Under the pieces are notes generated by a model. The model was not told the origin of the DNA and searched no databases. It worked only from the letters and a program-made list of their open reading frames with translations. 64,000 bases of DNA from an uncultured Verrucomicrobiae bacterium (GTDB taxonomy: Bacteria > Verrucomicrobiota > Verrucomicrobiia > Chthoniobacterales > JAFAMB01), in contig CAVXLD010000005.1 of assembly GCA_963762565.1 (NCBI GenBank), positions 1 to 64,000 on the forward strand. The letters are read 5' to 3'. This document shows, one piece after another, positions 31,917 to 56,446 of this stretch. Position 1 is the stretch's first letter; each line of letters begins with the position of its first letter. The translations under genes were made by a program, and so were the position numbers.

Positions 31917-33041
31917 ATGACAACAGTCGAACAGCTTGACCGAACCGAACCGGTAGTTGCCGAAAAGAAAGGCACCTACAAGAGCCCGTTGTATCAGATG
32001 ACGCAGACAACGCCTACCTGTCTGTGGAATGATTCGGCATCCATTGAAGAACTAGCTTATTCCATTGAGCATGGCGCGGTCGGAGCCACTTGTAACCCGG
32101 TGATCGTGGTTGGGGTGCTCAAGAAAGAAATGCCTCTATGGAAGGACCGGATCCGGGCCTTGATCAACGAAATGCCAACTGCTACTGAGGACCAGATCGG
32201 TTGGCAGATCGTTCGGGAGATCTCCGTCAAAGCCGCCGCGCTTTTGGAGCCGACGTTCGAACAGCAGAAAGGCAAGAACGGACGGTTGTCTGTTCAAACA
32301 GACCCCCGGCTTTATCGGGACACTGAGGCAATCGTTAAACAGACTATCGAGTTCTCCCAGCTGGCGCCTAATATCATTGTAAAGATTCCGGTTACCCGCG
32401 CCGGCATACCGGCAATCGAAGAAGCCACCTACCAAGGCGTGAGCATCAACGCCACGGTCAGTTTCACTCTGCCACAAGCGATCGCCGTTGCCGAAGCCGT
32501 TGAACGCGGCCTTAAACGCCGGGAACGCGAAGGGAAAGATATCTCCACCATGGGCCCGGTCTGCACCATCATGGTAGGCCGGCTGGACGATTGGTTAAAA
32601 GCCGTAGCTGAGAAAGAAAGCATCACCACCGATCCCGGGTACTTCGAATGGGCCGGTGTCGCTGTGTTCAAAAAAGCGTATCAGATCTATCGCGAACGCG
32701 GCTATCGTCTCCGTCTGCTTTCAGCCGCCTTTCGCAATCATATGCATTGGAGCGAATTCATCGGGGGCGATGTCGTCATCTCGCCGCCTTACGCCTGGCA
32801 AGTCCGGTACAACGCCAGCGATATCGCCGTCGTTCCGCGGATCGATAATCCCGTCGATCCGAAGATCGTGGCTGACCTCTCCAAGAAGTTCGTCGATTTT
32901 CGCCGAGCCTATACCGAAGACGGGCTTACAGCGGAAACCTTCGATTCGTTTGGCCCGACTCGACGCACCCTCCGCCAATTCATCGCCGGTTGTGGTGATC
33001 TCGGAGCCATTGTCCGCGATTTCATGCTGCCGGAGTGGTGA
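31917..33041 (+). CDS. Transaldolase family protein
   Basis: WNDS, GATCNP, NIIVKIP and GVSINATVSF motifs. Confidence 0.88.
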   Translation: MTTVEQLDRTEPVVAEKKGTYKSPLYQMTQTTPTCLWNDSASIEELAYSIEHGAVGATCNPVIVVGVLKKEMPLWKDRIRALINEMPTATEDQIGWQIVREISVKAAALLEPTFEQQKGKNGRLSVQTDPRLYRDTEAIVKQTIEFSQLAPNIIVKIPVTRAGIPAIEEATYQGVSINATVSFTLPQAIAVAEAVERGLKRREREGKDISTMGPVCTIMVGRLDDWLKAVAEKESITTDPGYFEWAGVAVFKKAYQIYRERGYRLRLLSAAFRNHMHWSEFIGGDVVISPPYAWQVRYNASDIAVVPRIDNPVDPKIVADLSKKFVDFRRAYTEDGLTAETFDSFGPTRRTLRQFIAGCGDLGAIVRDFMLPEW

Positions 33042-33175
33042 GCGGGGGAAGTGAGAAGTGATTGGTGGGTTCGTGGAGGGCGCCTCGCTTGCGAGGCCCA
33101 CCTTGGCGAGTGTTGAAACCCAACGTGAGCTACGTGGGCGATCCGGCGGCCGCCCATAGGCGTCAAGATAAGGAG

Positions 33176-33367
33176 TTAGTGCTTGAGTTTGAGGGGCTTA
33201 GTCGGTTTCTTTCGACGCAGGATGAGGGTGTTTTTGTCTTCGACGAACCACTCTAATTCTTCTCCTTTGTCCAGTTCAATAGCGTCGGCCAGAGCGGCAG
33301 GCAAATTGACATAGAAGCTGCGATTGGTGGGACGATCGACTTTTTGGAGTTTGACCGGATAGCCCAT
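33176..33367 (-). CDS. AbrB/MazE/SpoVT-like small DNA-binding protein within the IS
   Basis: VKLQKV...SFYVNLPAALADAIELDKGEELEW, a swapped-hairpin pattern. Confidence 0.75.
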   Translation of the reverse strand: MGYPVKLQKVDRPTNRSFYVNLPAALADAIELDKGEELEWFVEDKNTLILRRKKPTKPLKLKH

Positions 33368-33454
33368 GGTTAGGAAAGAAGTCTAACGCTCTAAAGAGCA
33401 AGAAAGAGAGAGAAAAAAGCTGTGCAGGTATATAGTGTTTATACTATATATCAT

Positions 33455-34714
33455 ATGCTGCAACGCTTTTCCTATTTGCCTCTGCAAACCTTGGCTAGAA
33501 GCTCTGGTTTTGTCTTACGACGCCCTAAAAAACTCTCTCTGGAAGCATTCCTTCAATCCATCCTCTTGAGTCTGTGCTACCCAGCCTATTCTTTCCAAAG
33601 CTGGGCGGCCCAATTAAGTGCCTTGCAGGCGGGACTGTTCTCTAAACAAGCTCTGCATCAGCGCTGCGACAGAAGGCTGCTAGATTTTCTGCAACTTTGT
33701 TTGGCCAGCTTGTTAGCCAATTTTATGCACCGCTCTTGCCCCAGTCGGCTGTTGGAACCTTTCGGCCGAGTTTTGCTCCAGGACAGCACCGCTTTAGCCC
33801 TCCATCCCAGACTGGCGAGTTGTTTTCCGGCTTGTGGTAATCAACACCAAGCAAAGCTTGCCAGCGTCAAAATCCAAGCCGTCTTTGAACTGCGTTCTCA
33901 ACGCTGGCTTCATTTCCAACTCGGTGCCCTGACCGACAACGATCAGAAGGCCTCGAGCTTGATTTTAAGTTTGCTCCAACCCGGAGACTTGGTCATTCGC
34001 GACCTGGGCTACGCCGTCTTTAAAGTTTGGCGCCAGATCATCCAGGCCGGGGCCTATTTCTTGAGTCGGTGCCGCAGCGATTTTGTTTTCTTTGATCCCA
34101 AAACTCAAAAGCCGGTCGAGCTTTTGGCTTTAGTGCAAAACCATGGTCAACTCAGTGCCCAGCTGCTGCTCGGCGCCCAAGAGCGACTCCCGGTGCGTTT
34201 GGTGGCTTTGCGCTTGCCCCCAGCCTTAGCCGCTCAGCGTCGGCGGCGCGCTCGGGCCAACGCCAAAAAAGATCGCTCGCTAAAGCTCACCAAACGCTAT
34301 CTCAAACTTTTAGGTTGGACCCTCCTATTGACCAACGTCACCGCTGAACAACTCAGTGCCCAGCAACTCTGGGAAGTCTATAGCACTCGGTGGCAAATCG
34401 AAGTGCTTTTCAAAAGTTGGAAATCTCATTTTCAGCTCGGTCAGCTTCCCGCTCGCAATCCACTCTGGGTCCAGATTCAACTCTTAGCAAAACTACTAGC
34501 CATTGCCTTGCTGCAGACCGCTTTTGCCCTTCAGCCTTGGGGCGTTGAACTAAACGCTCTCAGTCCACTCAAAATCGCTGCCTATTTGAGTCGTTTGCTT
34601 CCCTTAATTGCCGCTTCCCCTCACCAAGACTGGCTCCAACATTTCTTTTACTTTTGCCGTTATGACTCCCGTTCCGATCGAACCAACCTCTTTCAAAGAC
34701 TCGCAGCTTTATGA
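33455..34714 (+). CDS. IS4-family DDE transposase
   Basis: LLQDST, LVIRDLGY and YSTRWQIEVLFKSWK (YREK) motifs. Confidence 0.93.
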   Translation: MLQRFSYLPLQTLARSSGFVLRRPKKLSLEAFLQSILLSLCYPAYSFQSWAAQLSALQAGLFSKQALHQRCDRRLLDFLQLCLASLLANFMHRSCPSRLLEPFGRVLLQDSTALALHPRLASCFPACGNQHQAKLASVKIQAVFELRSQRWLHFQLGALTDNDQKASSLILSLLQPGDLVIRDLGYAVFKVWRQIIQAGAYFLSRCRSDFVFFDPKTQKPVELLALVQNHGQLSAQLLLGAQERLPVRLVALRLPPALAAQRRRRARANAKKDRSLKLTKRYLKLLGWTLLLTNVTAEQLSAQQLWEVYSTRWQIEVLFKSWKSHFQLGQLPARNPLWVQIQLLAKLLAIALLQTAFALQPWGVELNALSPLKIAAYLSRLLPLIAASPHQDWLQHFFYFCRYDSRSDRTNLFQRLAAL

Positions 34715-34827
34715 GTCGACTCCTTATCTTGACGCGCATGGGCGGCCGCCGGACGAGATTCCTCTTTTTTGCTTCCGTTTGCGGTTAGTCTCCGAAACTC
34801 TTGCTCCCGATCCCGGGAGAAGTGTTC

Positions 34828-35461: not shown

Positions 35462-35660
35462 TTACGCCTGGCAAGTGCGTTACAATGCGAGCGATATACC
35501 CGTCGTTCCGCGGATCGATAATCCCGTCGATCCGAAGATCGTGGCTGAGCTCTCCAAGAAGTTTGTCGATTTTCGCCGGGCCTACACCGAAGACGGCCTG
35601 TCCTTAGAAACCTTCGATTCGTTTGGCCCGGCCCGGCGTACCCCGGCAATTCGTCGCCGG
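35462..35660 (+). pseudogene. Diverged duplicate of the transaldolase 3' region (32789-32989)
   Basis: Long identical stretches such as CGTCGTTCCGCGGATCGATAATCCCGTCGATCCGAAGATCGTGGCTGA; no 5' part; small deletion near the end. Confidence 0.9.
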
Positions 35661-35679: not shown

Positions 35680-36387
35680 TTATCTTACGCTGCGCCTGCT
35701 AGGAGATTGGCGGACTGGTGAATTTTGCACTGGCTGGATGCGATAACAATTGATCGCAACAATCCGCTCCTGGCCTGGTAAAAGAGGGGTCACCTCATGA
35801 GGCACTATGCCACCTAACAGCACAGCGGTGTCGCCTCGTTCCAAAGTCACTGCCACTCCCGATAATTTTCTGTTGGCGTGAAGCTTTGATAACGGTTTTC
35901 CAATATATTCTGGATAAACATGCAGCCCGCCGGCGAGGCGACTCGTGTCGTTTGATGTGAGACATGTAATAAGGGCAACGTCACAACCTTCTTCGTCGCG
36001 GTGCAGGCCTAGGAAGTCACCCGCTTGGTCATAGTAGGTGTAGATGCCCGCGCCGGTTGGTTGGACCGAAGTATTGCATAAGCGGCCAAGCGCCCCCGTG
36101 ACTCGGGATGATGAGTGGATCCTCCAGTGAATGTCTCCGCCATCCGTTGATCTGAAGGCTCGCGCCGGAGCGCCTCCCCGTCCCTCACTACCGTCCGAAT
36201 TCATCACCAAAAAACGCTTGGCTTTCGCCCGCATCGCATTCGCCTCGGTCGCCAGAATTTTCAAAGTGTATTTCGACATCCATTCTGGCAACACTACAAA
36301 ACCGCCATCAGCAGCTAAGCGAGATCGCCTAACCTGCTCCAATGCCGGCAAATCCCAATCATCTATGCCAAATGCCAGGTCTCGCAT
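35680..36387 (-). CDS. Fe(II)/2-oxoglutarate-dependent oxygenase-like protein
   Basis: YYDQAGDFLGLHRD...GGL...PHEVTP...ERIV gives the HxD...H facial triad plus a 2OG-binding Arg. Confidence 0.75.
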   Translation of the reverse strand: MRDLAFGIDDWDLPALEQVRRSRLAADGGFVVLPEWMSKYTLKILATEANAMRAKAKRFLVMNSDGSEGRGGAPARAFRSTDGGDIHWRIHSSSRVTGALGRLCNTSVQPTGAGIYTYYDQAGDFLGLHRDEEGCDVALITCLTSNDTSRLAGGLHVYPEYIGKPLSKLHANRKLSGVAVTLERGDTAVLLGGIVPHEVTPLLPGQERIVAINCYRIQPVQNSPVRQSPSRRSVR

Positions 36388-36404
36388 CCTTTGAAAAGCA
36401 CCAG

Positions 36405-38249
36405 TTAAGGGGTAGTTTCCTCTTCGAACCCTGCTGCACAGCGGCTTCGGCTTGGATCTATTGCCAGACTGAGATAGGAGTCACCTTCCCGTAGCATCAG
36501 TTGAGAAGTTACCAATTGCTGAAGAAACGCATCTAGAGACACTGGTTTTCCAAATCGTCGGGCTGCGAAGAGATCGATGCTGGAGCGGCTTCGGATCTCG
36601 TCACAAAATTCGTAGATCTCTCGTTGCAGACCATTGAACGGATAGTGTAAAGGCTCACGATTGGGTCGACTGTCTAGAACCATTAGCTCAGGATCTGTGC
36701 CGTAGTTTTTTATAAGATCGCCTTGATTTCCCCTCCAGGTCTCGACCTTGTCGAGCACTGGCTGCATATACTGAATGGGCTCCCGACTGTCAGAGTACTC
36801 GTAATCAAAAAAATAGGCTAGGTTGGTCACGGTTTCGTCAGGTAGGAAATAAATGTGGTAATATAAAGAGTACGGCCGTACATCGACGAAGCCGAACTCC
36901 TCAGCTTGGTCATAATTCGGGCTAAAGCGGTCGAGGCGGATCTTGGCGACGACGCCGGGGGATGGAAGATGATAGATTGCCTCGATGACTCGCGCTGTTT
37001 CTTCGTAGTCTTGGACGGTTTCTCCCGGGAAACCGTATAACAAGTTCCAGGCGATTTCGACACCGTACTCGCGCGCGAGTTTAAGCAATTGCACATTCTG
37101 GATCGCGCTAACTCCCTTGCGCATAAGTTGCAAGACGTGGCTGTTCAAGCTCTCGATGCCGGGCTGGATGGCCGTCACCCCTGCGTCGCGCAACATCTCG
37201 ATCTGATCACGTCTAAGATTAGACTTTACTTCATAAAAAAGGGAAATCCCCGGATTGTGCTCCTTTAGCATCGGCAGCAGATCCCGGAAAAATTTATATG
37301 ACATGATATTGTCTACGGCCTGAAACTCACGTAACCCGTAACGGGCTCTCTGCCTTTCTAGTTCTCTATAGACGCGTGAAGCGCTTTTTGCTCGAAAGGT
37401 TAGCGTCGAGCCGTTCAAACCACAGAACGTACAATGCGACTTGGCAAACCACCAGCAGCCCCGGGCGGTCTCAATCAACAATGCCGGTTCTAATTGCGGT
37501 CCAAGCGAAGTGCGACGCACAGCGGTAAAATAGTCATCATAATCCGGGTCCGGTAAGCGATCCAGGTCATGAATCCGATCCGGGGGCGCTGTAAGCTTTG
37601 ACTCACCGTCCTCCCTACAAATCACGCCGGGTACTGCTTCGGCCGTATGACCGGTGCACAGCCGTGCAACTAGAGCTGGAAAGCTGTTGTCCGACTCCCC
37701 AGAACAGATGTAATCAATCCAAGGAAACTGGCGGTGGAGCTCTAACCCCATTATACCTTCGCAGTTCCCGCCCCCAAACACTATGATTTTGTCCTTGTAT
37801 CTCTTCTTAATGGACTGGGACAAGGCGAGGGAAGCTAGATTTTGCTCGAAGGTCGTCGAAAACCCAATAATCTGGTGGCCAGCGATATCGAATTCGTCAA
37901 AGCAAGCCTCGATAAATGGAGACACCTCTCCACGAAGGTTCATCACATCCTTGAACTCGCCGTCGTCTAGCTCCTGTCGCAAAAACTCGACATAGGGGGA
38001 GCGATCTTCTCCCGGAAATACGTACTCAGAAAACAACCAGTCACCAGTGAACAACCATCCGCTAAGCCGATCGTTAATCAGTTCGTACGCTGAGAGTCCA
38101 ACCCGCTCAGCAAAAAGCAAATTTCCGTATCCAATATCGCACCGGATCCCTTCTTCAGATAACCGGGCCTTAAGAATACTGATCCCGATTGCAGGCCTGG
38201 ACAGCGAAACGAACGGCATATTCAGAAGTAGAACCCTGAACATGAGCAC
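36405..38249 (-). CDS. RiPP maturation radical SAM C-methyltransferase (TIGR03975-like, B12-binding N-domain)
   Basis: LLNMPF...RPAIGISILKA, GFSTTFEQNLASLAL, FGGGNCEG, ETARGCWWFAKSHCTFCGLN (Cx7CxxC), IQPGIES, WNLLYGFPGE and RLDRFSP motifs. Confidence 0.9.
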   Translation of the reverse strand: MLMFRVLLLNMPFVSLSRPAIGISILKARLSEEGIRCDIGYGNLLFAERVGLSAYELINDRLSGWLFTGDWLFSEYVFPGEDRSPYVEFLRQELDDGEFKDVMNLRGEVSPFIEACFDEFDIAGHQIIGFSTTFEQNLASLALSQSIKKRYKDKIIVFGGGNCEGIMGLELHRQFPWIDYICSGESDNSFPALVARLCTGHTAEAVPGVICREDGESKLTAPPDRIHDLDRLPDPDYDDYFTAVRRTSLGPQLEPALLIETARGCWWFAKSHCTFCGLNGSTLTFRAKSASRVYRELERQRARYGLREFQAVDNIMSYKFFRDLLPMLKEHNPGISLFYEVKSNLRRDQIEMLRDAGVTAIQPGIESLNSHVLQLMRKGVSAIQNVQLLKLAREYGVEIAWNLLYGFPGETVQDYEETARVIEAIYHLPSPGVVAKIRLDRFSPNYDQAEEFGFVDVRPYSLYYHIYFLPDETVTNLAYFFDYEYSDSREPIQYMQPVLDKVETWRGNQGDLIKNYGTDPELMVLDSRPNREPLHYPFNGLQREIYEFCDEIRSRSSIDLFAARRFGKPVSLDAFLQQLVTSQLMLREGDSYLSLAIDPSRSRCAAGFEEETTP

Positions 38250-38290
38250 ACTTACTCTTCACTTAGATGGCTTAGCCATCGAGATCGGTT

Positions 38291-38413
38291 CTAAGCTCGG
38301 CAATTCTCCGCATCGCTGGTTGGGTTTCGAGCTTTTGGCGTTTGTGGTTCTGGTGGCGAAGCGGTTCGCTCGGATCGTGTGATAGTTCTGATCAGACTAA
38401 CTGACTCGGACAC
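38291..38413 (-). CDS. Second putative precursor peptide (40 aa; possibly frameshifted, alternative end at 38259)
   Basis: Below the ORF-track cutoff. GTG start reads MSESVSLIRTITRSERTASPPEPQTPKARNPTSDAENCRA*, resembling the upstream peptide (ESVxxIR, PPEP..KAR). Confidence 0.45.
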   Translation of the reverse strand: MSESVSLIRTITRSERTASPPEPQTPKARNPTSDAENCRA

Positions 38414-38418
38414 ATAAT

Positions 38419-38601
38419 CTATCTCTCGGGCTTAGCCGGCCGGGCTTTTTTAGGCTCGGGCGGTGTTCTGATTGGTGGTTTAATTTGGCGGATCGGTGGT
38501 TTGCGCGCTGGTTTGGGCGCACTTGGCCGAGTGGACGGCTTGGCTGGGTTGGCTAGGTTGGCTGGCTTGACCGGTCTGATCGGATCAACTGACTCGAGCA
38601 T
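38419..38601 (-). CDS. Putative RiPP precursor, Pro/Lys/Arg-rich 60-aa peptide
   Basis: Strong RBS (AAGGAG-ATCCTAT-ATG); first gene of the minus-strand unit with the radical SAM gene; 17 Pro, 15 Lys/Arg. Confidence 0.7.
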   Translation of the reverse strand: MLESVDPIRPVKPANLANPAKPSTRPSAPKPARKPPIRQIKPPIRTPPEPKKARPAKPER

Positions 38602-38793
38602 ATAGGATCTCCTTTATAAGCTCCGATGGTAATTGATTTCGCTGCGTGTCAGCAAGTCAGAAATAGGTTAGGATGCGAATGTTGAATGCTCGTAGCTGAA
38701 AATGGTCGACTAAATCGAATCCGCTCTGCAGGATAATCTCGTAGTCTCGTCCCGGGTTTTGCTACACAGTGTCGGAGTTAGGCTTTCTAGAAC

Positions 38794-40135
38794 ATGAGCC
38801 TGTTAAAAACCTTTTCGCCCCGGCTTTCTCCCGATTTTCAGGGGACTCCTGGCCAAGCGGAAGCTTGGCACAGTGCTGTGAATGCCTGGTTCCAGTCATC
38901 AATCGCACTTCAGAGGTCGTCCGTGAAATCGCGGAACTCAAGGTCTCGGGGAGTTGTGCAATTCTACAACCCTGCAAAATTTGACCCAGGTGGCCCAGCT
39001 GCGGAACAAGCAATTGTCTGGAACGCCTTCCCTAAAGAACTCGATAAGCAATACGGATTCGATCGTGCTTTGATTGAAGCGGATCGGCTACAGACTCTGA
39101 ATCGCTATTCCAAGGACCTGAATGCAGCAGTTCATTTCAGAACTTTGTATCGGCCACTTAATGAATATTGCGAATGGCATACCGTTCGCGATCCTAATAC
39201 TCAGAAGATAACAAAGGTTACGTTCTCCTCTGAACCTCCCGAATATTGGCGAGCACTATTCGGCGATGAAATAACGATCGACAGAAGGATGAGCATTAGG
39301 TTTCCAGGCGACCGCCAGCGGGTTCTAGCGCTCTACCGTGAATTGGTGAGTCCGGAGGTGCAAATGGACGATCTAATCTGCAAGGAGACGATACCGAATG
39401 CTGCTGGTCTTCCGCCGCTTGCCGTAAAAGGCGGTTACAATACCTATAATAAATGGAACACCTCGCATGGAACGTTCACTGTGATATCCCCGAAATTCCC
39501 TGGCACAGGAGATTGAGCTTGGAGCTGCCGCTACTGTCCTCCGAGCGACTGCTTCAGGCGGAGCTATCGTACAGCCTGAGCCGCTAACCTGCTGCAGCCT
39601 CGCTGGGAACCCAGATCGCAATAGCGATCCGACAATCAGTTCTTCCCTGAACGCTCTGGCGCGGGCTGGGGCTTCACTTTGCAGAATCCCGTCGGCCTAT
39701 ACCTGGACCACATCGATATTTTTGGATGGTGCGGACCGGAGTCGCGACGTTAGTGATTGTATAAGGATTGTTCGTGGCGCACCTGGGATGATTGAGCGCC
39801 TTATAATACAAGTACCGTCTGAACGTGGTTTCCTGGTGGGCAACATTACGATAGGTGGCGCCCCAATCGTTTATGGGGGACAGATTGCTGCCTGCATAAC
39901 CATGAAACTCATCGGTACAGCAGCTTGTCTCGGTACGATCTACAATGCCCCTGTCAGATGCGCTGGTCGCTGCTGCGTAGACCTAGCCAACCCGGTTCTC
40001 CTGAACCGGCGGGTCCCGTTCGGTTCTCCGACGCCCATCGGGATGGTCGACGCGTTTTTTGGCGAAATTTCTCGTCGAGTCGATCCGTCGAGAAAACACT
40101 ATAAGAATCGACAGTCGTTCCGACGCACCCGTTAG
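38794..40135 (+). pseudogene. Uncharacterised EYCEW/RNSDP-motif protein, split by at least 3 frameshifts (decay or sequencing error)
   Basis: Joined frames read ...NEYCEWH...KVTFSSEPPEYW...YNKWNT / NSLAQEIELGAAATV...TCC...GNPDRNSDPTI...NALARAG / TLQNPVGLYLD / RIVRG...IVYGGQIA. Confidence 0.7.
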
Positions 40136-40211
40136 ACTCTCAACTATAACGAAACTTCATGAGACGGAAGAGAAACCACGAAAGTCACGCACCAATCAAC
40201 CGGTGCTCTCG

Positions 40212-41784
40212 ATGGACGACATCCAAGGCGAAGTTGTACCTGGCTTTTTCAAACCTCATCAGACGCTGTTGGGACTTCACATCCCAGATCGGATAACCGC
40301 CCTGCGGAGGTTTAAGAGAATAGTCAAAGATCTTCCGCAGAAATCACTACCGCAAGGCAAACACTCGACGATCGGCGCGCGCACCGCGAGTTTCGTCGAA
40401 GGACGAAATCTGGCGCATCCGAGGCTGAGCAAGCAGGGGTCCTTCCGCCATAGGATTTTCTTACCGCGGTCTGATTCGCTTGACACCAAGCGCCAGTCTG
40501 ATCACTAGCGAACCATTTCGATTGGGACTTGTGGCTCGCTCGACACTCTTGGGCGACCCGATTGATGCCTCCGAAGAGGGTGCTCCCTGGAATTGGGTCG
40601 TAGGTGCTCCGGGCGCTGAACTCGATGCTCTCGTGATCGTTGCCGGCAACCAGCGAAATTGGGTCACCAAGAGAGCCAGGGAATTAGCCGAGCGGTTAAT
40701 GAAGGGCGGCGTCACTGTCGCCTATGACGAAGACGGTGATGTTCGGACTGGCGAGGGGCGCGGGCGAGAGCACTTCGGCTTCAAAGACGGTATTTCACAA
40801 CCGGGTATCCGAGGGCGGGCGTCGGATAGTCCAAACGACTTTATTACCGAGCGTTATATCGCTTCAAGCGAAGTGCCTGAGCGTTGGTTGTACGGCTATC
40901 CTGGTCAGGATCTGGTTTGGCCTGGCGAATTTGTAATTGGATACCCAAAGACCGGCCCTGATCCGTTGGTTCCCGCCCCTCCTGACCCAATTGAACCGGA
41001 ATGGACGCGGAACGGTTCTTTTCTAGTCTTTCGTAGGCTTCGCCAGGACGTAGGCCTTTTCTGGCGCAGCATGCGTGCAATGGCCGCCGAGCTCGCAATG
41101 TTGCCAGGATTTGTTGGCATTGAAGAACAGCGATTGGCGTCGTTATTGGTTGGACGTTGGCCGAGCGGCGCGCCTGTTAACAGAACGCCCGCCGCAGACA
41201 ATTACGAATTAGGAAATGACGCATTAGCCAACAATAATTTTCAGTTTGACTCTAATGGTCTGCTTGTGAAGCTCGCTGGTAACCGCCGCGACGGATATCC
41301 ACAAGCGAAGGCCGACCCACTCGGAGCGACTTGCCCGTGGGCAGCCCATGTTAGGAAAGTCAACACCCGTGATTCCGCGTCTGACATGGGTGGTCGCGAA
41401 AGTACTTACAATCGTCGCATCCTGCGAGTCGGGGTGCCATTTGGTAAATTCCTGGACAGTCGCAACGCGACTGCGAAACAGGATCCAAAAAAACGCAACC
41501 GCGGTTTGCTTTTCCTTTCTATACAAGCCTCGATCGAGAAGCAGTTCGAGTTTCTCGTTTCGCGATGGATAAACGATCCGTCGCGACCGAAGATGCCTGG
41601 CGGACAAGACATGCTAGTCAGTCAAAAATCAGCTGCAGAAGATGGCATTCGACGATGTTTCCTGTTGGGATCTGGATTGCAGCAGGTAAAACTCTCCACC
41701 AACCAAGAGTGGATCATCCCGACCGGAGGTGGTTACTTCTTTATGCCCTCGATAAGCGCTCTTCGTGAGGTAATCGCTAAGTGA
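40212..41784 (+). CDS. DyP-type (dye-decolorizing) heme peroxidase, N-terminus frameshifted
   Basis: DDIQG N-terminal motif in another frame; EHFGFKDGISQP, NGSFLVFRRLRQDV, AHVRKVNTR, RRILRVG, GLLF and GGGYFFMPS motifs. Confidence 0.88.
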
Positions 41785-41824: not shown

Positions 41825-44800
41825 CTAGCTACCGGGCGATCCGACTGGATTGACATGCGCCAGACTTTGCAATGCTTGACTTATTTCATCGATCAGCATT
41901 TGTCGGTCACTACCGTCGTACAGTTCCGCCAAGTCCAAACCCGCCTGAAGAAACCTTTGGGTTTGCGTTATGTTTTCATTGCCGCCTACTTTTTCCATAG
42001 TCATGGCAGCCTTATAGAGCGCCAAAATTAGATCCCGTCGCCAAGTCGAATTGGATTTGTCTTGCTCAGCTAAATTTCGTCGGATCTGCAAGCTTTCCTC
42101 GTACACCTCGAGTGCTTGCCGAATCCTGCCTTGTGCTGCTAACCCATCGCCAAACTTTTCATAGCTCACCGATAGCTCTCGTTGCCAGTCTAGGTTAGAC
42201 TTGTCCTCGTCGGCCAGTCGCTTGGCGATCGTCAAACTTTTACCGTACGCATCCAATGCATCTTGGAGCTTGCCCTGTGCTACCAATATATCCCCAAACT
42301 TGTAGTAGCCGGCCGAGAGGTTCTGCTGCGCGATCGAGCCGGATTTATCTTGTTCAGCCAGTGCTAACCAGATTTTTAGGCTTTGCTGGTAAAGCTCGAG
42401 AGCGTCCTCCAGCTTGCCCTGTGTCTGCAGCACAGAAGCAATCTTTTCATCGTTGTTTGAGAGATCCCATTGCCAAGTTGAGTTGGATTTGTCTTGTTCA
42501 CTTAAGCGCTCGGCAATTGCCTGTGCTTGCCGGTAAAGATCCAATGCATCCTGGAGCTTGTCTTGAGCCATCAGGACGTCGCCGAGCCGCGTGGTAATCG
42601 CCGATAAGTCTCGCTGCCAACTTGAGTTGGACTTGTCTTGCTCAGCCAAGTATTTGATCATCGCTAGTCCCTGCCTGTCAGTCTTCAGCGCATCATTAGG
42701 TGTCCTTGCGCTGTCAACACATCCCCAATCTTAATAAAGCTCACCGCAAAGTCCCGTTGCCAGGCTGAATTGGATTTGTCCTGCTCGGCGAGTTTCTGGC
42801 GGATGTGCCAGCTTTGCTGGTAGAGATCCAGTGCGTCCTGGAGCTTGCCTTGCCACTCGAATACCTCACCAACACGGTCGTAACTTACGGGCGAGATCTT
42901 GCTGCCAAGCAGTGTTGGATTTGTCTTGCTCACTCAGTGTCGTCCAGATTTTCAAGCTTTGTTGGTAGTACTCCAGCGTCTCGCGAAGCTTACCTTGCCA
43001 CTTTAGCTGATCGCCAACGTTGCGGTAACACAGCGCGAGAACTTGTTGCGACTCGGAGTTAGTTTTATCTTGCTCGGTCACCAGTTTGGCAAGCGTTAGG
43101 CTCCGTCGATACTCCTGCAGCGCTTCCTGGAGTTTGCCGCGTAAAGCGAGAACATCGCCAAGGTTATTCAACATGACTGTTTGCTGCCTTAGACGCGAGG
43201 GAGTTACTAACTCCTTTGATACGTTGTCTAAATATTCCTGCGCTTTCTTGGCAACGTCGTCAGTCCATGTCTAGTCGGCCAATCGGTTTCAATTTATCGC
43301 GCAGGTCGTACAGCATGAAGTTGATAATGCGGTCGCCCTGATCACGTGCATTGTTGGCTTGCTTTTGCGAGGTCTGAGCCGCGATTCTGGCTTGTTCTGC
43401 GCGGCGGTACTGACGATAGCTAACCACTCCGAAGATGATCGCTACGATAAGCGCGGCGGTGATCCCGGCCATTACGCCATACCGGATCCGTTCCCGGATC
43501 CGGTGTTGTCGCTTCTGTTCAGCAACGCTCGCGCGGACATAATCGGCCTGTGTCTGGCTCAACGAGGGTTCGAAGTCTTTGAGTAGCTTCTCTCCTTCCG
43601 CCAACGGCAGTCCCGGTCCGAGTAAATCATCTTTCTGTTTTCCGCGGCTCAGCCAGAGCTTCAGGCTCGAATCGAGCCGATCGCGCATTCGGAGGAAATC
43701 GCGGTTCTCAGTCAGCCATTCTCTGATTCGTTGCCATTCCCTGAGCAGAGCTTCATGAGCAACACTGACATTGACCTCGCCGTGGGGATCCGTATCCGCG
43801 ATGAAAAGGCGTTTGGCGATGAAGAGATCAACGAAGCCTTTCGCGCCTGACTTCCCATCTTCGCCATCGCCGGCGACAAATTCACGGTAAGGAGCGGTTC
43901 TGCGGTTAGGCGCTTCTTCCTCGCCTTGGCCCAGGGTAACCAGGTGCCGCATCACCAGCGGAAAGGCGAGTTGTTCGTTTGGTTGCAACGTCGCAAAAAC
44001 TGTCTCCGCATATTTGGCCAGCGCTCCCTTCAATTCACCGAGGTCGCGATAATCCGACCAGCGTAATAAGCCGTCACCGCGTTCAACCTGCTTATCATAG
44101 AGCAGGGACAAAACATGTTGGAGTAGGGGCAAAGATTCCGGCGTGGTCGATGCCGCATCGCGTAGCCCTTCATCCAGTCGCTGGCCGCTTTTCTGATCGA
44201 GCTCGAATTGAAGGCCGGCAGCTTCGGCCGGCAGTCGGATCATATTGCCAATCTCATAGGCCGTGGGCGGCCGCAGATCCACCTTCCCGCTAGGTCGAGT
44301 CAATTCGGTTAACTCAGGGAATTCCTGGTAGGAAGAATAAAAGTCGCTGCGTAGGGTTGCTAAAATAAAAACCCGGCCGCTTTGACTTAACCCGGCAATC
44401 GCCGAGACATATTTTTCCTGAATCTCCGTCGAAAAACCGCTGGTGAAGAGTTCTTCCAACTGATCGATCACTAACGCCAGGCGAGCTTTGGGAAGTTCAG
44501 GTGCTTCCGTCGGGGCGTCGTGGTGAAATGACTCCCGATACCGTCGTGGATGCCGAGCTCCGCGATTTCTCCGCTTTCGCCCGCAAATACGAAGTCCGTT
44601 GCAGTTTCCATTCTCTGGCGGCGTTATCGAGCGCGTCCCGGACCCGAAGTGCAACGGCGTCGGGATGATCACGCAATTCGGCAGCTAATTCCTCGACCGC
44701 ATTGGTCGACTCCGGATTCTGCAAGCCGGGCAGGGCGGCAGAGTCGAGCAAAGCATTCGCCAGTGCATCGAAACAATCGCCGCCGCTTCCGCCGCCGCCG

Positions 44801-46753
44801 GGTCGGGTCACAGCTCGACGCCATAGCCCGATCCCTTCGATTGTGCCTGGCTGGATTAACTGTGGGAGAACTCCTGCTCGCACTAAAGAGCTTTTGCCTG
44901 AGCCGCTCCCGCCTACAATGAGCACAAACGGGCGCCAGACTTTCCTCTGCTGGTCTAAAGCTTCTAACACCTCGCCGATTGCCTTGGTTCTTCCAAAAAA
45001 GATCGGTGCGTGCTCAAAATCGAAGACGTTCAGCCCACGAAACGGACTCGTTTTCCATCGGCGTACTCTTCTTTCCGGTAGTTTGGTTCTGGCATCATGT
45101 TTGACCTGATCCGCTAACAAAATCTCGGAAATGGTTCCGGAATTGTTCCTCAAATTGTTCTAAAGTCTTGTATTGATTAAAGTCAGTCGTGCCTTTCCGC
45201 TTGTCTTCCCATTGCGCCAGAAAATCGCGCTTCGACTCCGGTTCTTGTACGCTGGACTTCGCGTTCTTGTCGCGGTTCCAACGAGACCTGCAGCATTGAT
45301 TGCTGCGATAAACTCGGAGAACTGGCAGACCATGATTTCTGCTGGCATGTTCGGCTGCCCAAGCGATTTCGTATTCCGTGCCCGAAGCCGGAACCCCACC
45401 GTCTGGCAGTCTTAACTCAGGGTGAACGGGCAGGCCTGTTTGATTCCCTAAAAGGCAAACCACTAAATCAAAGTTTCCAGGGTCCGGCAGTCGCGCGACT
45501 TCGCCTTCTGACTGTGTAGTCCCAAAATTGCACACAAAGCACGAATTTCTGATGTTCTTGGTCATCACCGCTTTTCGTTGCCGTCGTGTTCCAAAAGGGG
45601 ATCAACTTCCGTTATGCGTTGAAAATCGGAACTGGATTCGGACACCAGCAGATCGAACTCGCCGGCGATCGCTCGGACGATTCGGTTTGCCAGATTTCGT
45701 TCGCTCTGGACATCGCTACTCGAAGAGACAAAGACTCTGATTGTTTTCCTGACCAGTTGCCCCGTTTCGACAGCACTGATTACCGTTGGCAGCACCGTTG
45801 CTAGTTCAGCCGGGGTTTGAAACCTTCGCGCTGGATCTTTCCTGAGCAGAACCTCAAGCAATGCAACGACCGGTTGGGGTACGTCTCGGAGTTTCTCCAA
45901 CGGCAAGAGGGCTGTTCAAGTGCTGGTTCATCACCGCATTCGGAGCTCCTCGAAACGGCGGTTGGCCGGTCAGCATCTGCCAGAGCGTGATCCCGAGGGA
46001 ATAAAGGTCAGAACGGATATCGACATCAGTCCCCGTGAATTGTTCCGGGCTAGCGAACTCGGGCGTTCCGACGAAAGCGCCCAGAATCGATATTTCCTGA
46101 GATTCGGACTCGCTAAGCGTCTTGGCCAGCCCCAGATCGATAATGTTTACTGAGACAGCGCCATCTGCCGCCGAGCTCACCATGATATTGCTCGGTTTGA
46201 TGTCGCGATGAACCAGATTCTGTTTGTGAATTGCCTCCAATCCGGCAGCAACCTGTGCGACGATTCCCAATGCCAGCTTAGCGTCGAGACAGGTAGAACG
46301 CTTGATGAGACTCCCTAAGGTCTCCCCCTCGACAAACTCCATTGCATAGAAGTAGTGTTCCTGACTCGTCCCGAGTTGGAAAACTGAGGCAACATTTGGA
46401 TGGCGAACGCTGGCCGCTGCTCGCGCTTCCCGCAGAAATCGGGATCGAGCCTCCTCATCAGCGAGGTAACGCGGGCTGATAACCTTGAGAGCAGCGAACC
46501 GACGTAAATCGACATCAAAAGCCTTGTAGGTAATCCCCATCGCGCCGCGACCTAACTCGAATGGGGATCCATCGTCGTGCCGCAGGATCTCATAGTGCCC
46601 AAAGCGGGTTAGCGGGGCCAACGGCTCGGATGGTTCGGTGGCTGCATCGTCGGGTTGAAGTGCTCCTCGAAAAGCGCAAACCGGACAGAAGTCGTCGTGC
46701 GGAGCCAGGGTGGCGCCGCAAATCTGGCAGATTCGAACTTTTGCAGCACTCAT
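41825..46753 (-). pseudogene. Zn-ribbon Ser/Thr kinase - DUF4062-like - STAND NTPase - TM - TPR fusion, split into about 8 frames
   Basis: Kinase motifs LGRGAMG, HRDIKPSN, DLGLAK, GTPEFASPEQ; then IRVFVSSSSDV, SGTEYE, SPFRGL...FFGR, GGSGSGKSS, IDQLEELFT, VAHEALL; a TM helix; TPR repeats. Colinear with 52364-56446. Confidence 0.85.
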
Positions 46754-52363: not shown

Positions 52364-55300
52364 TTACAGGCTGCCGATTGCGGCCTGTATCTCTTGCAAA
52401 TGGCGCTGATCAGTCGGTGATAGAGTGGTTTGCGTTTGCAATTTCAAGAGTATATCTCGGCCTCTCCCTAATAACGCTCGGGTCTCCTGGCTTGGTTCGA
52501 GGCCGGTTTTGGGCAGTGTGATGGCCGCGGAATAACAAGCTAAGGCGAGGTCGCTTGCCCAGTCGCCGTTGGTGGGATCTTTGCTGACAAGGTTTTCGCC
52601 TAACCCAATGCACTCGCGATAGCTGCTCAGCGCATCAGAGATTGTACCCTTGGCCCGGAGAAGATCCCCCACTTTTTGGCAAGTCTCTGCTAGATCGCTT
52701 TGAAATCCCAGAGTGGTTGAGTTCTTCTTGACTAGCTCCCTTTCGAGGCCCTGAGCAGTTCGATAATTGCTTAATGCCCCGTCTAAATCTTTTTTCGCGT
52801 AAAGCAAATCGCCGACAGTGATGTAACTCCAAGACAGGTCGTTTTGCCACTGGGCATTACTCTGGTCCCGATCTGCAAGCTTCTTTCTGATAGCGAGCGA
52901 TTCGAGGTCTTTGGCAAGCGCGCCCGAGAAGTCGCCCTGCGTACTGAGGATAGTACCCACTCTCTCAAGGCCGATCGATAAATTGCGTTGCCATTCTGAA
53001 TTGCTGGGATCCTGAGCAACCAGCGTACGATTTATCGAAAGCGCGACCTCATATTTTCCCATAGCGCCGTTTTTGTCGCCTTGTAATTCCAACACCTTAC
53101 CGAGGTCGTAGTACCCGGTGGATAAGTCGGCCTGCGCATTAGCGTTGCTCGGGTCTCTTTTTGCGAGCATCTGCTGAATTTCGAGGGCGCGCTGGCAGTT
53201 CTCGAATGCGTTCGTCAAATCGCCTCGCGAAATAAAAACGTCCGACACGTAACTGTAACTGCGAGCTAACAGACGTTGCCACGTCGCATTTGACGGGTCT
53301 TTTTCTGTAAGCTTCCGTCGAAGTTCGAGTGCGTCGCGGTGCATTTCCAGCGCGCCGGCGAGGTCCCCCTGTTGAGTCAGTCCTTTGCCCAGCCGTTCTT
53401 TGCTGACGGCGAGCTCCTGTTGCCACAGCGCATTCGTCGGTTCCGCGTCTGCCAGCTTCTGCTGAATGGCCAGACTGTCTTTGTAACTTTTGACGGCGTC
53501 TGCCAGGTTCGCTTGCTTAGAAAATACGTCACCAATTTTCAGAAGAACACGGGAGACATCATGGTCGCGCTCGATATTGTTCGGCTCTTTCATTTTCAAG
53601 CCTTCCCGGATGGCGAGACAATCCTGGTAGCTCTGCAAGGCGCTTGTCAGATCACCTCGACTGTCTAACACTTGACCAATGTTCTCCTCGATAACCGACA
53701 GATCATGCTGGAGATCAGCATTGTCTGATTCGCGAGTGACCAAGCCTTGCAGAATTTTGAGGGCCGCTTGATAGCGCTCCAATGCCCCTGAAGTATCTCC
53801 CTGGAGATACAAGACGTCACCCACGTTTCCGGTGGCCAACGCTCGATACCGCTGCCAATCATTATTGTTGAGGTCTTGTTGGGCGAGGCGCTCTTGGATG
53901 CTCAGCGACGCATTATAGCTCTTTAATGCGCCGGTAAGATCACCCCGGTCTTTCTGAATATCACCGGCGTTCGTAAGCGCGACACTCGATTGGCGGAGAA
54001 CGTCTGGGTTATTCGTGTCACTTCCAAGTGAGGCGTAGTAACCAAGCACACGCTGATTGACGTCGTCCAACAAATCTAACCGTCCAATCGGTTTCAGTTT
54101 GTCCCGAAGATCGGTCGTCATGTAGTTGATCAACTTACCGGCATCATTTCGGGCCAGAGTCGCTTGACGAGATTGTCTAAAGGCCAGACCAGCCAGGACC
54201 AACGCTAATACCAAAGCGGCACTGATGACGCCGATTACCACCCGGGTGGCACGTCTTTTTCGGATCAGCTCCGCATGAGCCCGCGCAGTCGAGGCTTCCA
54301 CGAAATCGCGTTCGGTGGAATCCAGGAAACCTTCAGCCAAAGTCTGGCGCGCTTTTTCGAGCGGCAAACCAGTTCGATACAAGTAGTCTGGATTCTTGTC
54401 GCTTTCCAGCCAGCGCTTGGCGTCTGCGGCTACCTGCGCGCGGTTCAAAAGTGATTCTCGATTCTCCTGTAACCAGCGGAAGAGTCGTTCCCAATGAGTC
54501 AGTAATGCCTCGTGGGTAACACTCACTACCACCCGCCCAGCGTCCGTCCGATCGACAACGAATAGCCGAGCATCCCGGTGTAAAAATGCACTAACAAAAG
54601 CTTTGTCACCCGCCGGTCTGGTCAGTTCGTCGTACTCTGCCCAGCGGCGATTGAACGCGACCGCTTCTTCGGTAACCACAGTGGTTACCCGGCGCATCAC
54701 ATGATCGAATTGGGCTTGAGCTTCCGGACCCAACGATAGGAATAGATCTTCTGCCCGGCGGGCCAAAGATCCTTCAACCCCTCCCATCGCTTCATAGTCC
54801 TGGTGGGTTAGTAATCCGTCATTACGGCGTTCTTGGGCTCGGTAGAGTTCTTCCAAACAGAATTGCAGTAAAGGAAGCGCTTCCGGGCTCCCGGTAGCGG
54901 CATCGCGCAACCGATCGTCCAGCGATTCCTTGGTTTCCGGGTGTACTTCAAATCGTAAACCCGCGGCGGCAGCGGGTTGTCTGATTATCTGACCCAATTC
55001 GGCGATGCTTGGCGGGAGCAAATGATACAATCCGTCCCCCTGGCTGAGATCTGCTAGCAGCGGCAACTCGGCACATCGGCCAAAGAAATCGCTCCGCAGG
55101 GTAGCGATCACATAAGCTTTCCCGCTTTTAGCTACTGCTGCCAACGCGGTGATGAACCCACGGCGTTGATTTTCGCCAATTCGCTCCAAGGTAAACAGCT
55201 CTTCAAGCTGATCGATGAACAAGACTAATCGAGCGGTCTTCGGTGCTAACGTCGGGGTAGGCGCTGCGACAGAAGAAGGATTAGTTTGGTCGGCGCGTTT

Positions 55301-56446
55301 GGCCCCGGCTGCGGCCTGATCCAAAGCGGTTACCAGCCCGAACTCGATCCCGGCCGGATTCCGTCTTAAAAGATCTGCAATCGATTCGACCGAAATGTCG
55401 CCGCTGACCAACTCTGGTAATGCTTCTGGGCGGCACAACGCCCGAGCTAAACCATCAAAGAGGTCGCCAGCCGCTTCACTGGGCCGCATCACCGCTCGTC
55501 GCCAGACAGCGATCCCATTTCCAGGCTCTACCAGGAGTGGCAGTACCCCCGCCCGGATCAGCGACGATTTGCCGACTCCGCTCATGGCGGAAACCAACAA
55601 AAAGGCCGCAGGTTCGATCTCGGCGCCCGGAGAGCGCGAAGCTCTGGCGTCTTCCACTTCCGCCATTCGTTTCCGGAGCCGATTGACGACGTCGCCGATC
55701 GCTTTGGTACGTCCGAAAAAAATCGGTGCGTGTTCGAAATCGAATGCCTCTAAGCCTCGAAACGGGCTTCTTCGTCCCCAGACTAACGATTGATCGCGGT
55801 TTTCGCTGCGTTCTACTCGTGCCTTAGGCAGTTTTTCATCAAAAAGCCGGTCAAGATGCCGTTCGATCAGCTCTTCGAACTGGCCAAGCTCGGCGTAAGT
55901 CATGTATGCGCCCTTGTTTTCCCCGGTCTCCGGATCGCGGCAGTATTCCGCGATGAATTCTTTTACTAGTCTAAGTTGTTGGATCGACCGCTCGAACTCG
56001 GTATCCGGGAATTGGCGGATCTGGGCTGGTGCCGTATTAAGATAGATCATTAGGTTCGGCCGCCCATTGGCCAGCCAGGCCGCTCGCGACGTGAGAACCT
56101 CATATTCAGTTCCGGACCGATACCGCTTGCCGTCTGGCGCTATCATAGGAGTACCCAGCCGGGACCAGAGTATACAGATAACGATGTCGAATCCGGCACA
56201 ATCAGGGATCTGCGCTTGGAAGGTCCCAGAGTTGCTCATCGGCTCGTACTCCCAAAAGTAGGGTTCGATCGTACCCCGGCTGGCGAACTTGGCCTGGAAC
56301 CGATTGATAACGCGTTCGGTTAGCTTCCGCTCGAGATCCACGTCCCCGGGAGACGAAATGAACACCCGGATGACGGGGCGTTCAGGGCTGGCGGCAGGAG
56401 GCGCGGTTCCATCTTCAGACGGTCCCGGCTGTAAAGCAGAACTCAT
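52364..56446 (-). CDS. DUF4062-like - STAND (nSTAND1-like) NTPase - TM - TPR protein, 1360 aa
   Basis: IRVFISSPGDV, SGTEYE, SPFRGL...FFGR, SGVGKSS (Walker A), IDQLEELFT, TLRSDF, ALPLLQF and HEALL motifs; TM helix; long TPR array. Confidence 0.88.
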   Translation of the reverse strand: MSSALQPGPSEDGTAPPAASPERPVIRVFISSPGDVDLERKLTERVINRFQAKFASRGTIEPYFWEYEPMSNSGTFQAQIPDCAGFDIVICILWSRLGTPMIAPDGKRYRSGTEYEVLTSRAAWLANGRPNLMIYLNTAPAQIRQFPDTEFERSIQQLRLVKEFIAEYCRDPETGENKGAYMTYAELGQFEELIERHLDRLFDEKLPKARVERSENRDQSLVWGRRSPFRGLEAFDFEHAPIFFGRTKAIGDVVNRLRKRMAEVEDARASRSPGAEIEPAAFLLVSAMSGVGKSSLIRAGVLPLLVEPGNGIAVWRRAVMRPSEAAGDLFDGLARALCRPEALPELVSGDISVESIADLLRRNPAGIEFGLVTALDQAAAGAKRADQTNPSSVAAPTPTLAPKTARLVLFIDQLEELFTLERIGENQRRGFITALAAVAKSGKAYVIATLRSDFFGRCAELPLLADLSQGDGLYHLLPPSIAELGQIIRQPAAAAGLRFEVHPETKESLDDRLRDAATGSPEALPLLQFCLEELYRAQERRNDGLLTHQDYEAMGGVEGSLARRAEDLFLSLGPEAQAQFDHVMRRVTTVVTEEAVAFNRRWAEYDELTRPAGDKAFVSAFLHRDARLFVVDRTDAGRVVVSVTHEALLTHWERLFRWLQENRESLLNRAQVAADAKRWLESDKNPDYLYRTGLPLEKARQTLAEGFLDSTERDFVEASTARAHAELIRKRRATRVVIGVISAALVLALVLAGLAFRQSRQATLARNDAGKLINYMTTDLRDKLKPIGRLDLLDDVNQRVLGYYASLGSDTNNPDVLRQSSVALTNAGDIQKDRGDLTGALKSYNASLSIQERLAQQDLNNNDWQRYRALATGNVGDVLYLQGDTSGALERYQAALKILQGLVTRESDNADLQHDLSVIEENIGQVLDSRGDLTSALQSYQDCLAIREGLKMKEPNNIERDHDVSRVLLKIGDVFSKQANLADAVKSYKDSLAIQQKLADAEPTNALWQQELAVSKERLGKGLTQQGDLAGALEMHRDALELRRKLTEKDPSNATWQRLLARSYSYVSDVFISRGDLTNAFENCQRALEIQQMLAKRDPSNANAQADLSTGYYDLGKVLELQGDKNGAMGKYEVALSINRTLVAQDPSNSEWQRNLSIGLERVGTILSTQGDFSGALAKDLESLAIRKKLADRDQSNAQWQNDLSWSYITVGDLLYAKKDLDGALSNYRTAQGLERELVKKNSTTLGFQSDLAETCQKVGDLLRAKGTISDALSSYRECIGLGENLVSKDPTNGDWASDLALACYSAAITLPKTGLEPSQETRALLGRGRDILLKLQTQTTLSPTDQRHLQEIQAAIGSL

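Follow-up and report, generated by a model that had tools for sequence, protein, structure and literature searches.

A candidate three-gene modification unit for a proline-periodic repeat peptide in an uncultured Verrucomicrobiae bacterium, with relatives whose repeats tail large proteins

Radical S-adenosylmethionine (SAM) C-methyltransferases of the TIGR03975 type are known from a handful of pathways for peptides that are made by the ribosome and modified after translation (RiPPs), with precursors that carry NHLP- or Nif11-type leaders. In plants, prolyl 4-hydroxylase and hydroxyproline O-arabinosyltransferase act on the proline-rich repeats of extensins, and C-methylation has, to our knowledge, no counterpart there. 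We know of no radical SAM partner described for the prolyl 4-hydroxylase of the virus PBCV-1. This small stand-alone 2-oxoglutarate (2OG) enzyme acts on short proline-periodic repeats of the Pro-Ala-Pro-Lys type (PMC3634087). In the polytheonamide pathway, B12-dependent radical SAM enzymes (PoyB/C) iteratively methylate unactivated carbons of Ile and Val and a 2OG hydroxylase (PoyI) acts on the same ribosomal peptide (PMC11285071, PMC9505594). PoyC, which C-β-methylates Ile and Val, carries a Cx7Cx2C motif that a review calls unique to it (PMC11285071), PoyI-type enzymes hydroxylate Val (PMC9505594), and the class B radical SAM enzymes BotRMT1–3 of bottromycin biosynthesis C-methylate a ribosomal peptide on residues that include Val and, through BotRMT3, Pro (PMC11285071). 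Here we describe a minus-strand gene unit in a 64,000-nt stretch of DNA (positions 1–64,000 of contig CAVXLD010000005.1, hereafter the window) from an uncultured Verrucomicrobiae bacterium (GCA_963762565.1; 6.1 Mb, 93.7% complete), in which a 60-residue proline-rich open reading frame (ORF60) stands with a radical SAM enzyme of the B12-dependent type and an Fe(II)/2OG oxygenase. We propose, with moderate confidence, that these three genes form a self-contained post-translational modification unit in which ORF60 is the substrate and is both C-methylated and hydroxylated.

The unit consists of four collinear ORFs in the order ORF60, ORF40, radical SAM gene and oxygenase gene, the last starting 17 nt past the radical SAM stop codon (Table 1). 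ORF60 is preceded by an AAGGAG ribosome-binding site at a 7-nt spacing and contains 17 Pro, 8 Lys and 7 Arg, no Cys, Gly, Phe, Trp, Tyr or His, and the motif KPPIR twice; the earlier note on this DNA had reported the frame, its ribosome-binding site, the 17 Pro and 15 Lys/Arg, the lack of Cys, Gly and aromatic residues and the repeated KPPIR, all of which stand. The peptide reads as degenerate P-[I/V/A]-x triplets plus two PPIR units, includes the segment ..SAPKPARKPP.., and is encoded in part by a 9-nt tandem repeat (38540–38569). Neither ORF60 nor ORF40 matched a family among the NCBIfam and Pfam models, and ORF60 carries no NHLP or Nif11 leader, the former absence having been rightly claimed before. 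ORF40 shares with ORF60 about 45 nt that run from the ribosome-binding region through the start codon to the tenth codon, including the ESVxxIR start that the earlier note had singled out; BLASTP aligns the two in two collinear segments (residues 1–11 and 37–54 of ORF60 with 1–11 and 8–29 of ORF40), and the end of ORF40 (..SPPEPQTPKAR..) parallels that of ORF60. Because of the shared 5′ stretch and the parallel end, ORF40 looks like a tandem copy that has suffered an internal deletion and lost most of its prolines, and it may be either a decayed copy or a second precursor.

Evidence for our proposal comes from 80 loci encoding relatives of the radical SAM enzyme—L004, with 75% identity, from the species-representative genomes and 79 loci from metagenomes—whose upstream sequence we translated. 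A proline-periodic repeat, mostly of the form (P-[I/V]-x)n, lies in the proline frame directly upstream of the radical SAM gene in 24 of these 80 loci (13 of the 80, with less than 150 nt upstream, could not be judged), and in the six closest loci the gap from the repeat or tail to the gene is 7 to ~45 nt. Since same-frame repeats precede the orthologous enzyme this often, a repeat of the ORF60 type is beyond chance. Only the window and its nearest relative, L004, have the repeat as a stand-alone ORF, which in L004 comprises 170 residues, opens with MPAPLEPVEPIRP..., continues as (PIEP/PPIL/PPIQ)n and is acidic. In five loci it forms the C-terminus of an all-beta protein of ~550 aa and in 16 it is the tail of a ~600-aa S8 subtilase (PF00082), followed by an acidic stretch or helix such as ..LSAEEVAALEELIVETDVDPDL; in the remaining two, L008 and L076, the contig end cuts the layout, the unit in L076 being E-I-R-P. 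Four further loci show a P-G-P-rich variant. In 21 loci the repeat continues the reading frame of catalytic domains encoded before it, and the proline frame is therefore the translated one. Across 271 triplets from 19 loci, the second position is Ile in 182 and Val in 51 (86% Ile/Val), and the third is variable (Q 76, R 43, E 29, I 25 and K 18, with T and others also present). Most tails are built of PIQ, PIE or PIT and L004 of PIEP/PILP units, so that net charge is not conserved; judged from these sequences, the conserved residues of the repeat are Pro and Ile/Val.

ORF60 resembles these larger proteins at both ends: its N-terminus (M-LESVDPIRP) recalls the junction between the all-beta domain and the tail (..VTESITPIIPIRP..; ..FFFSVTESITPIIPIRP..) and its C-terminus (..PPEPKKARPAKPER) the ends of carrier tails (..EP.KP.K; ..PIEPVEPAKPAKPQKPKK, ..PVEPIEPQKPK). 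The BNR/Asp-box label of the ~550-aa carrier rests on sub-threshold Pfam matches, an AlphaFold2 model of the L011 carrier reached a pLDDT of 45.6, a PDB sequence search with that carrier gave no match, and no signal peptide was found on the carriers read. Elsewhere in the window's own genome we saw no credible carrier of the repeat: short P-[I/L]-x runs occur at five further places, in frames of 18–172 aa that are not gene-like, and tblastn with both carrier types, a small accessory protein described below, two glycosyltransferases of relatives and an L008 neighbour gave no match at 1e-3. The expectation that similar small ORFs would be syntenic in homologous loci was borne out insofar as proline-periodic repeats recur beside the same enzymes, mostly as tails of large proteins; the more specific claim of a small cationic peptide substrate is not supported, the repeat in most relatives being the tail of a ~550–650-aa protein.

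The linkage extends to the oxygenase. We read the repeat type from the upstream sequence only and then searched by tblastn with the window oxygenase, in loci with at least 1300 nt of downstream flank. All 14 repeat loci with such flank have the oxygenase gene behind the radical SAM gene (one sequence stands twice among them, as L015 and L016), and so do none of 35 others, which comprise 3 P-G-P loci, 2 with a 30-aa repeat, 3 with a precursor of the MAE type discussed below, 23 of other kinds and 4 without upstream sequence; one locus, L032, has too little flank on either side to be classified, yet the oxygenase is present. In the clade that contains the window the two genes are direct neighbours, the oxygenase gene coming second. 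Loci of the subtilase type encode a conserved ~110–150-aa protein downstream of the radical SAM gene (L015 5451–5840, with equivalents in L019, L021, L024, L025 and L028), and its gene separates the two enzyme genes wherever an oxygenase gene is present. This small protein (..ISAQV.LR... ..TFTPPPDFGPT..) shows a faint match to the Pro-kumamolisin activation domain (E 0.1) and is fused to the oxygenase in one homologue, P0136. The repeat ORFs, the oxygenase and this small accessory protein all lack a covering model in Pfam and NCBIfam.

A FastTree phylogeny of 72 radical SAM sequences (9 of the 80 loci were excluded, their best segment covering fewer than 520 query residues; supports are local Shimodaira–Hasegawa-like values and the root is arbitrary) agrees with this distribution. 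The window enzyme pairs with L004 (support 99) within a clade of seven rows (support 100) composed of the window, L004, L008 and four all-beta-tail loci, every one of them preceded by a Pro-Ile repeat. An adjoining clade of 23 rows (support 99) contains 15 subtilase-tail, 4 P-G-P and 1 all-beta-tail loci and 3 without a recognised repeat, and other clades are preceded by unrelated ORFs, for example a Cys/Gly-rich precursor starting MAE..TLEMRVAELEDKL. That precursor belongs to a separate TIGR03975 clade (support 100; L067, L068, L071, L083 and L053), is ~120 aa long, starts MAE..K.TLEMRVAELEDKL..HI.EEEM and ends in a Cys/Tyr/Gly-rich stretch (..GGGGGFGGFG); it appears to be a different precursor family, possibly an undescribed one. 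Three more loci (L027, L030 and L070) have upstream ORFs with ~30-aa repeats holding ..PKPVARPIVEV.. and no oxygenase gene, and their repeat is another candidate substrate.

The enzyme itself is a full-length member of TIGR03975 (647 bits against a cut-off of 281.85, residues 6–597 on model positions 1–606), annotated as a RiPP maturation radical SAM C-methyltransferase and the family into which we take PoyB and PoyC to fall. The family membership had been suggested as a check and is upheld, as is the Cx7CxxC motif: cysteines C265, C273 and C276 are invariant across 28 relatives. The radical SAM domain PF04055 matches with 68.4 bits, and the B12-binding domain PF02310 matches residues 124–194 with 20.2 bits, under its 32.1 cut-off (E 5.6e-4). 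A PDB sequence search found only distant B12-dependent radical SAM enzymes (TokK and CysS; E 1e-6 to 1e-7). The window enzyme is the sole strong TIGR03975 member in its genome, and no second radical SAM ORF lies inside the unit, the genome not having been searched with an epimerase model. At 52% identity or above, the database clusters of its relatives number more than 120, with named sources that include soil Acidobacteriota (Terriglobia, Bryobacteraceae), Vulcanimicrobiaceae and Verrucomicrobiae assemblies.

The 235-aa downstream protein is, by its invariant residues and confidently predicted fold, an Fe(II)/2OG oxygenase. H129-x-D131, H197 and R208—the iron triad and the 2OG-binding arginine—are invariant in 11 homologues, in line with the HxD...H motif noted earlier, and an AlphaFold2 model built on that alignment (pLDDT 84.5) shows the double-stranded beta-helix fold of 2OG oxygenases. 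Foldseek returned at least 500 matches at E<=0.001, and all 33 among the matches listed are 2OG oxygenases; a VIA comparison found 151 chains at Z>=8. Behind the best match, the amino acid hydroxylase/halogenase relative HalB (discussed below), the next structural matches (Z 15.9–17.0) are prolyl hydroxylases and related enzymes, among them PHD, the Pseudomonas prolyl 4-hydroxylase acting on EF-Tu, OGFOD1/Tpa1 and a chlorovirus collagen-type prolyl 4-hydroxylase. Sequence alone places the protein poorly: no Pfam model passed its gathering score, the only match being PF03171 (13.4 bits, cut-off 23, E 0.1), and a PDB search with the family profile gave only E values of 0.17 and 0.34. PF13640 is weakly seen in fused relatives (E 0.003–7e-5), and the nearest named Atlas clusters by language-model features carry PF23169 (HalD). 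Run against 1.84 billion proteins, the profile picks out 389 representatives at E<=0.001, of which 144 reach E<=1e-30. A sample of 400 other genomes of the phylum held it in one, as a weak partial match (E 2.4e-4, 72 aa). Fused members include P0191, with a GT8-like glycosyltransferase N-terminus (PF01501, E 4.3e-7), P0123, with a methyltransferase domain, and P0136, joined to the ~120-aa protein that is a separate gene in subtilase-type loci.

From these observations we infer that the radical SAM enzyme takes the repeat as its substrate, and we propose the following scheme. ORF60 would be a minimal stand-alone version of a repeat module widespread in soil bacteria; the (P-[I/V]-x)n stretch of that module, which likely forms an extended rod of polyproline-II-like shape, is encoded just upstream of a TIGR03975 enzyme dedicated to it. 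The peptide would be translated from its strong ribosome-binding site, a signal seen in the sequence, and bound by the radical SAM enzyme, which, using methylcobalamin and a 5′-deoxyadenosyl radical, would place methyl groups on unactivated side-chain carbons along the repeat. By analogy within the family, the enzyme probably methylates Ile/Val, most likely at C-β as PoyC does, with Pro the second choice, as for BotRMT3; we favour the former because the second triplet position is 86% Ile/Val and because PoyC, which shares the Cx7Cx2C motif, methylates Ile and Val (PMC11285071). The oxygenase would then hydroxylate the same stretch, probably converting Pro to hydroxyproline, a preference that follows from the composition of the substrate, the prolyl-hydroxylase-like fold, the glycosyltransferases found as neighbours or fusion partners and the viral precedent on Pro-Ala-Pro-Lys repeats (PMC3634087). 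In some relatives the hydroxyl may subsequently be O-glycosylated. The product would be a bulky, rigid and protease-resistant peptide.

The glycosyltransferases that enter this argument are an O-FucT-family gene right after the oxygenase gene in L009 and L011 (PF10250, E 1.2e-23 for L011) and a hydroxyproline O-arabinosyltransferase-family gene after the oxygenase gene in L010 (PF23452, E 1.4e-17), the latter in convergent orientation.

How does this unit compare with the systems that it most resembles? With polytheonamide it shares the pairing of enzymes and the cysteine spacing, and its radical SAM enzyme belongs to an NCBIfam family annotated for this chemistry. Unlike in that pathway, ORF60 has no NHLP or Nif11 leader, the unit has no epimerase, N-methyltransferase, dehydratase or protease, and the substrate is a proline-periodic repeat, often within a large protein. 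Bottromycin maturation, alike in the C-methylation of a ribosomal peptide, needs YcaO enzymes and a follower peptide, and its substrate is unrelated; the absence of YcaO, claimed earlier for this locus, extends to the genome, in which PF02624 has no match (the same search matched 5 of 14 control genomes). The PBCV-1 enzyme is alike in size, independence and type of substrate, and its structure (5c5t) matches our model with Z 15.9, but it has no detectable sequence similarity to the window oxygenase. Plant extensins offer a proline-rich repeat, a 2OG hydroxylase and a glycosyltransferase of the family found in L010; the window system differs in being bacterial, in lacking Ser-Pro(3–5) motifs and, in the window itself, a glycosyltransferase, and in having carriers without a signal peptide among those read. 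The earlier note had proposed a candidate new RiPP class; because polytheonamide already provides the enzyme pair (PMC11285071, PMC9505594), the novelty lies in the substrate class and not in the enzymes. This class, which spans free peptides and protein tails, is undescribed; in our literature searches no publication connected radical SAM enzymes with Pro-Ile repeats.

Several points weigh against our reading, the first of which concern the chemistry. The best structural match of the oxygenase is not a prolyl hydroxylase but HalB (Foldseek E 3.7e-11, TM score 0.68; VIA Z 21.5 over 188 residues, root-mean-square deviation 2.5), of the BesD/HalB/HalD group of Lys/Orn hydroxylases and halogenases. 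Together with the action of PoyI on Val (PMC9505594), this match means that the hydroxylated residue could be Ile/Val or a basic residue. The glycosyltransferases argue for Pro in three relatives only, there being none in the window, L004 or L008 and no homologue in the window's genome, and the L010 gene, being convergent, has adjacency as its sole link. B12-dependent radical SAM enzymes also carry out non-methylation chemistry. The peptide could, accordingly, be the substrate of other reactions: a non-methyl radical reaction such as cross-linking or rearrangement, or an oxygenase acting on Ile/Val or on Lys/Arg. The name of TIGR03975 rests on few characterised members, and other B12-dependent radical SAM families (ApyD, BchE and HpnJ) do score on the window enzyme, weakly, at 68–94 bits. 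Yet its match to TIGR03975 covers the full length and lies far over the threshold, the motif is of the PoyC type (PMC11285071), the repeats conserve Pro and Ile/Val rather than Lys/Arg, and the neighbour in L010 belongs to a hydroxyproline arabinosyltransferase family. The members of the BesD/HalB/HalD group, moreover, act on free Lys/Orn, whereas the window oxygenase is genetically tied to a peptide, keeps the HxD motif of the hydroxylase rather than the halogenase form, and does not match PF23169 (HalD) at E<=10. We give such other chemistry a modest chance, perhaps that of the best of the minority views.

A second group of objections concerns ORF60 itself. It is the shortest and most degenerate member of the series, its Ile and Val residues numbering no more than 4 and 2, and a good part of its triplets read P-A-x or have slipped out of register; the repeat types of the relatives were assigned by eye from translations, with no independent classifier; and that ORF60 is translated and modified we infer from sequence features. 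A predicted complex of ORF60 with the radical SAM enzyme (28-row alignment) scored 0.45 (runs 0.45, 0.45 and 0.48; best control 0.01), with a partner pLDDT of at least 39 and agreement between runs on at least 35% of contacts; in calibration 116 of 157 solved complexes attained this mark, as did 2 of 215 mismatched pairs, and scores of 0.60 or lower came from 18 of the 157 solved complexes and from both mismatches, so the model speaks only weakly for binding. Neither a protease or leader peptidase, nor an exporter, nor an immunity gene adjoins the unit in the surrounding window, and the region appears to be in decay or flux, with an insertion sequence (IS4), a piece of a transaldolase gene and a DyP peroxidase that is probably frameshifted.

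These features would also fit ORF60 and ORF40 being the decaying remains of a tail whose carrier protein is gone, with the enzymes idle or acting in trans on other precursors of the genome. NHLP- and Nif11-leader precursors are the classical partners of TIGR03975 enzymes, and the genome encodes two NHLP leaders above the cut-off and ~18 Nif11-like leaders (C5:579–594 kb), with the window enzyme as its only strong TIGR03975 member, ORF60 short and degenerate beside a broken duplicate, and fragmentary genes around it. That array, however, is over 515 kb distant and comes with a LanM synthetase and a C39-ABC exporter of its own; the whole seven-row clade is preceded by Pro-Ile repeats and none of its rows by an NHLP or Nif11 leader; both enzymes retain all their invariant residues; the ORF60 frame is intact, with a consensus ribosome-binding site; and L004 has the same stand-alone layout with its 170-aa repeat ORF. 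We regard the leftover explanation as unlikely. The array (G000 C5:579766–593904, outside the window; L093 and L094) combines the ~18 Nif11-like leaders and an NHLP leader with a class II lanthipeptide synthetase (DUF4135 plus LANC_like), a C39-peptidase ATP-binding cassette exporter, HlyD and OEP proteins, and resembles a prochlorosin-type multi-precursor lanthipeptide cluster.

Still less probable is the idea of the earlier note that the product is a cationic, proline-rich antimicrobial or nucleic-acid-binding peptide, here taken to be secreted as a RiPP; the 15 Lys/Arg and 17 Pro in 60 residues and the PPIR and KPP motifs speak for it. Such a role is weakened by the relatives, in which net charge varies (L004 is acidic, most tails are PIQ, PIE or PIT and the subtilase type adds an acidic helix) and most repeats belong to large proteins; the unit, furthermore, adjoins no leader-peptidase, exporter or immunity gene. 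The cationic Pro/Arg core of proline-rich antimicrobial peptides is not conserved among these relatives, and we rejected such peptides as a family-level explanation. That ORF60 is a chance, untranslated frame in a short repeat we consider very improbable, since, although repeat DNA tends to stay open in several frames (in L004 three plus-strand frames and a minus-strand frame are open), the proline frame is continuous with catalytic domains in the 21 large-protein loci, the consensus ribosome-binding site is correctly spaced and the start and end motifs are conserved.

The coordinates of the unit and of the neighbouring features are collected in Table 1.

Table 1. Features of the unit and its surroundings, in positions of the window.
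Feature	Position	Strand	Basis or remark
AAGGAG ribosome-binding site	38609..38614	-	before ORF60 ATG; read from sequence
ORF60, 60-aa Pro-rich repeat peptide, candidate substrate	38419..38601	-	ORF and composition
ORF40, 40-aa GTG ORF, apparent shortened and diverged tandem copy of ORF60	38291..38413	-	DNA alignment, BLASTP
B12-dependent radical SAM enzyme, TIGR03975, 614 aa, Cx7Cx2C	36405..38249	-	HMM match
Fe(II)/2-oxoglutarate oxygenase, unnamed family, 235 aa	35680..36387	-	invariant residues and fold model
Transaldolase gene	31917..33041		
182-nt direct repeat, first copy	32789..32970		88% identity to second copy
Complete IS4-family element	33142..34753		35-nt inverted repeats at the flanks, 94% complementary
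IS4 transposase	33422..34714		NF033592, 208 bits
182-nt direct repeat, second copy	35462..35643		stray 3′ transaldolase fragment
ORFs of 240 and 137 aa	38794..40135	+	no Pfam or NCBIfam match
DyP-type peroxidase	40059..41784		TIGR01413, 121 bits; match begins at residue 43
Frame overlapping the peroxidase upstream	40059..40508		resembles its absent N-terminal part
TPR protein	41825..42661		
nSTAND1 NTPase protein	43260..44672		
Ser/Thr kinase	45854..46753		
nSTAND1 NTPase protein	52364..56446		

Directly after the oxygenase gene stands one copy of a 182-nt direct repeat, a stray 3′ fragment of the transaldolase gene that lies on the other side of a complete IS4-family element; transfer or recombination may have brought the three-gene unit to this foreign transaldolase end. 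On the other flank, two plus-strand ORFs may be pieces of one broken gene. The first of them (38794–39516) was considered as a penicillin amidase on an Atlas cluster match of low recognition (1607) that lacked Pfam or NCBIfam support, and was left unnamed. The DyP-type peroxidase beyond them seems to be split over two frames by a frameshift or an assembly error. Farther away are a Ser/Thr kinase, a tetratricopeptide (TPR) protein and a pair of nSTAND1 NTPases, one of which is 1360 aa long and has TPR repeats. A promoter and terminator scan of positions 35400–39000 was uninformative, giving one promoter-like site, on the wrong strand (2.9 in shuffles), and two terminator-like sites (3.8 in shuffles); two soil DNA runs compared with the stretch yielded only short near-identical contigs, without joints.

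A whole enzyme clade is tied here to a simple proline-periodic repeat, a substrate unlike the leader-bearing precursors, and one set of enzymes seems to work on free peptides as well as on the tails of large enzymes. More tentatively, and with considerable doubt on our own part, (P-[I/V]-x)n polyproline-II rods, free or as tails of proteases and all-beta proteins, might be a counterpart, in soil bacteria of several phyla, of the hydroxyproline-rich glycoproteins, C-methylated on side chains, hydroxylated on Pro by a new 2OG oxygenase family and in some lineages O-glycosylated, of which the window would hold the minimal, peptide-only form. On that view the modification would be of a new class for ribosomal peptides and proteins, lying across the usual border that separates RiPP natural products from the post-translational modification of proteins. 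Confirmation of our proposal would add a class of substrate and probably residues of new chemistry (methyl-Ile, tert-Leu or methyl-Pro, along with hydroxyproline), would put a name to an unannotated 2OG oxygenase family of 389 representatives, and would provide a compact three-gene system that is directly testable in E. coli.

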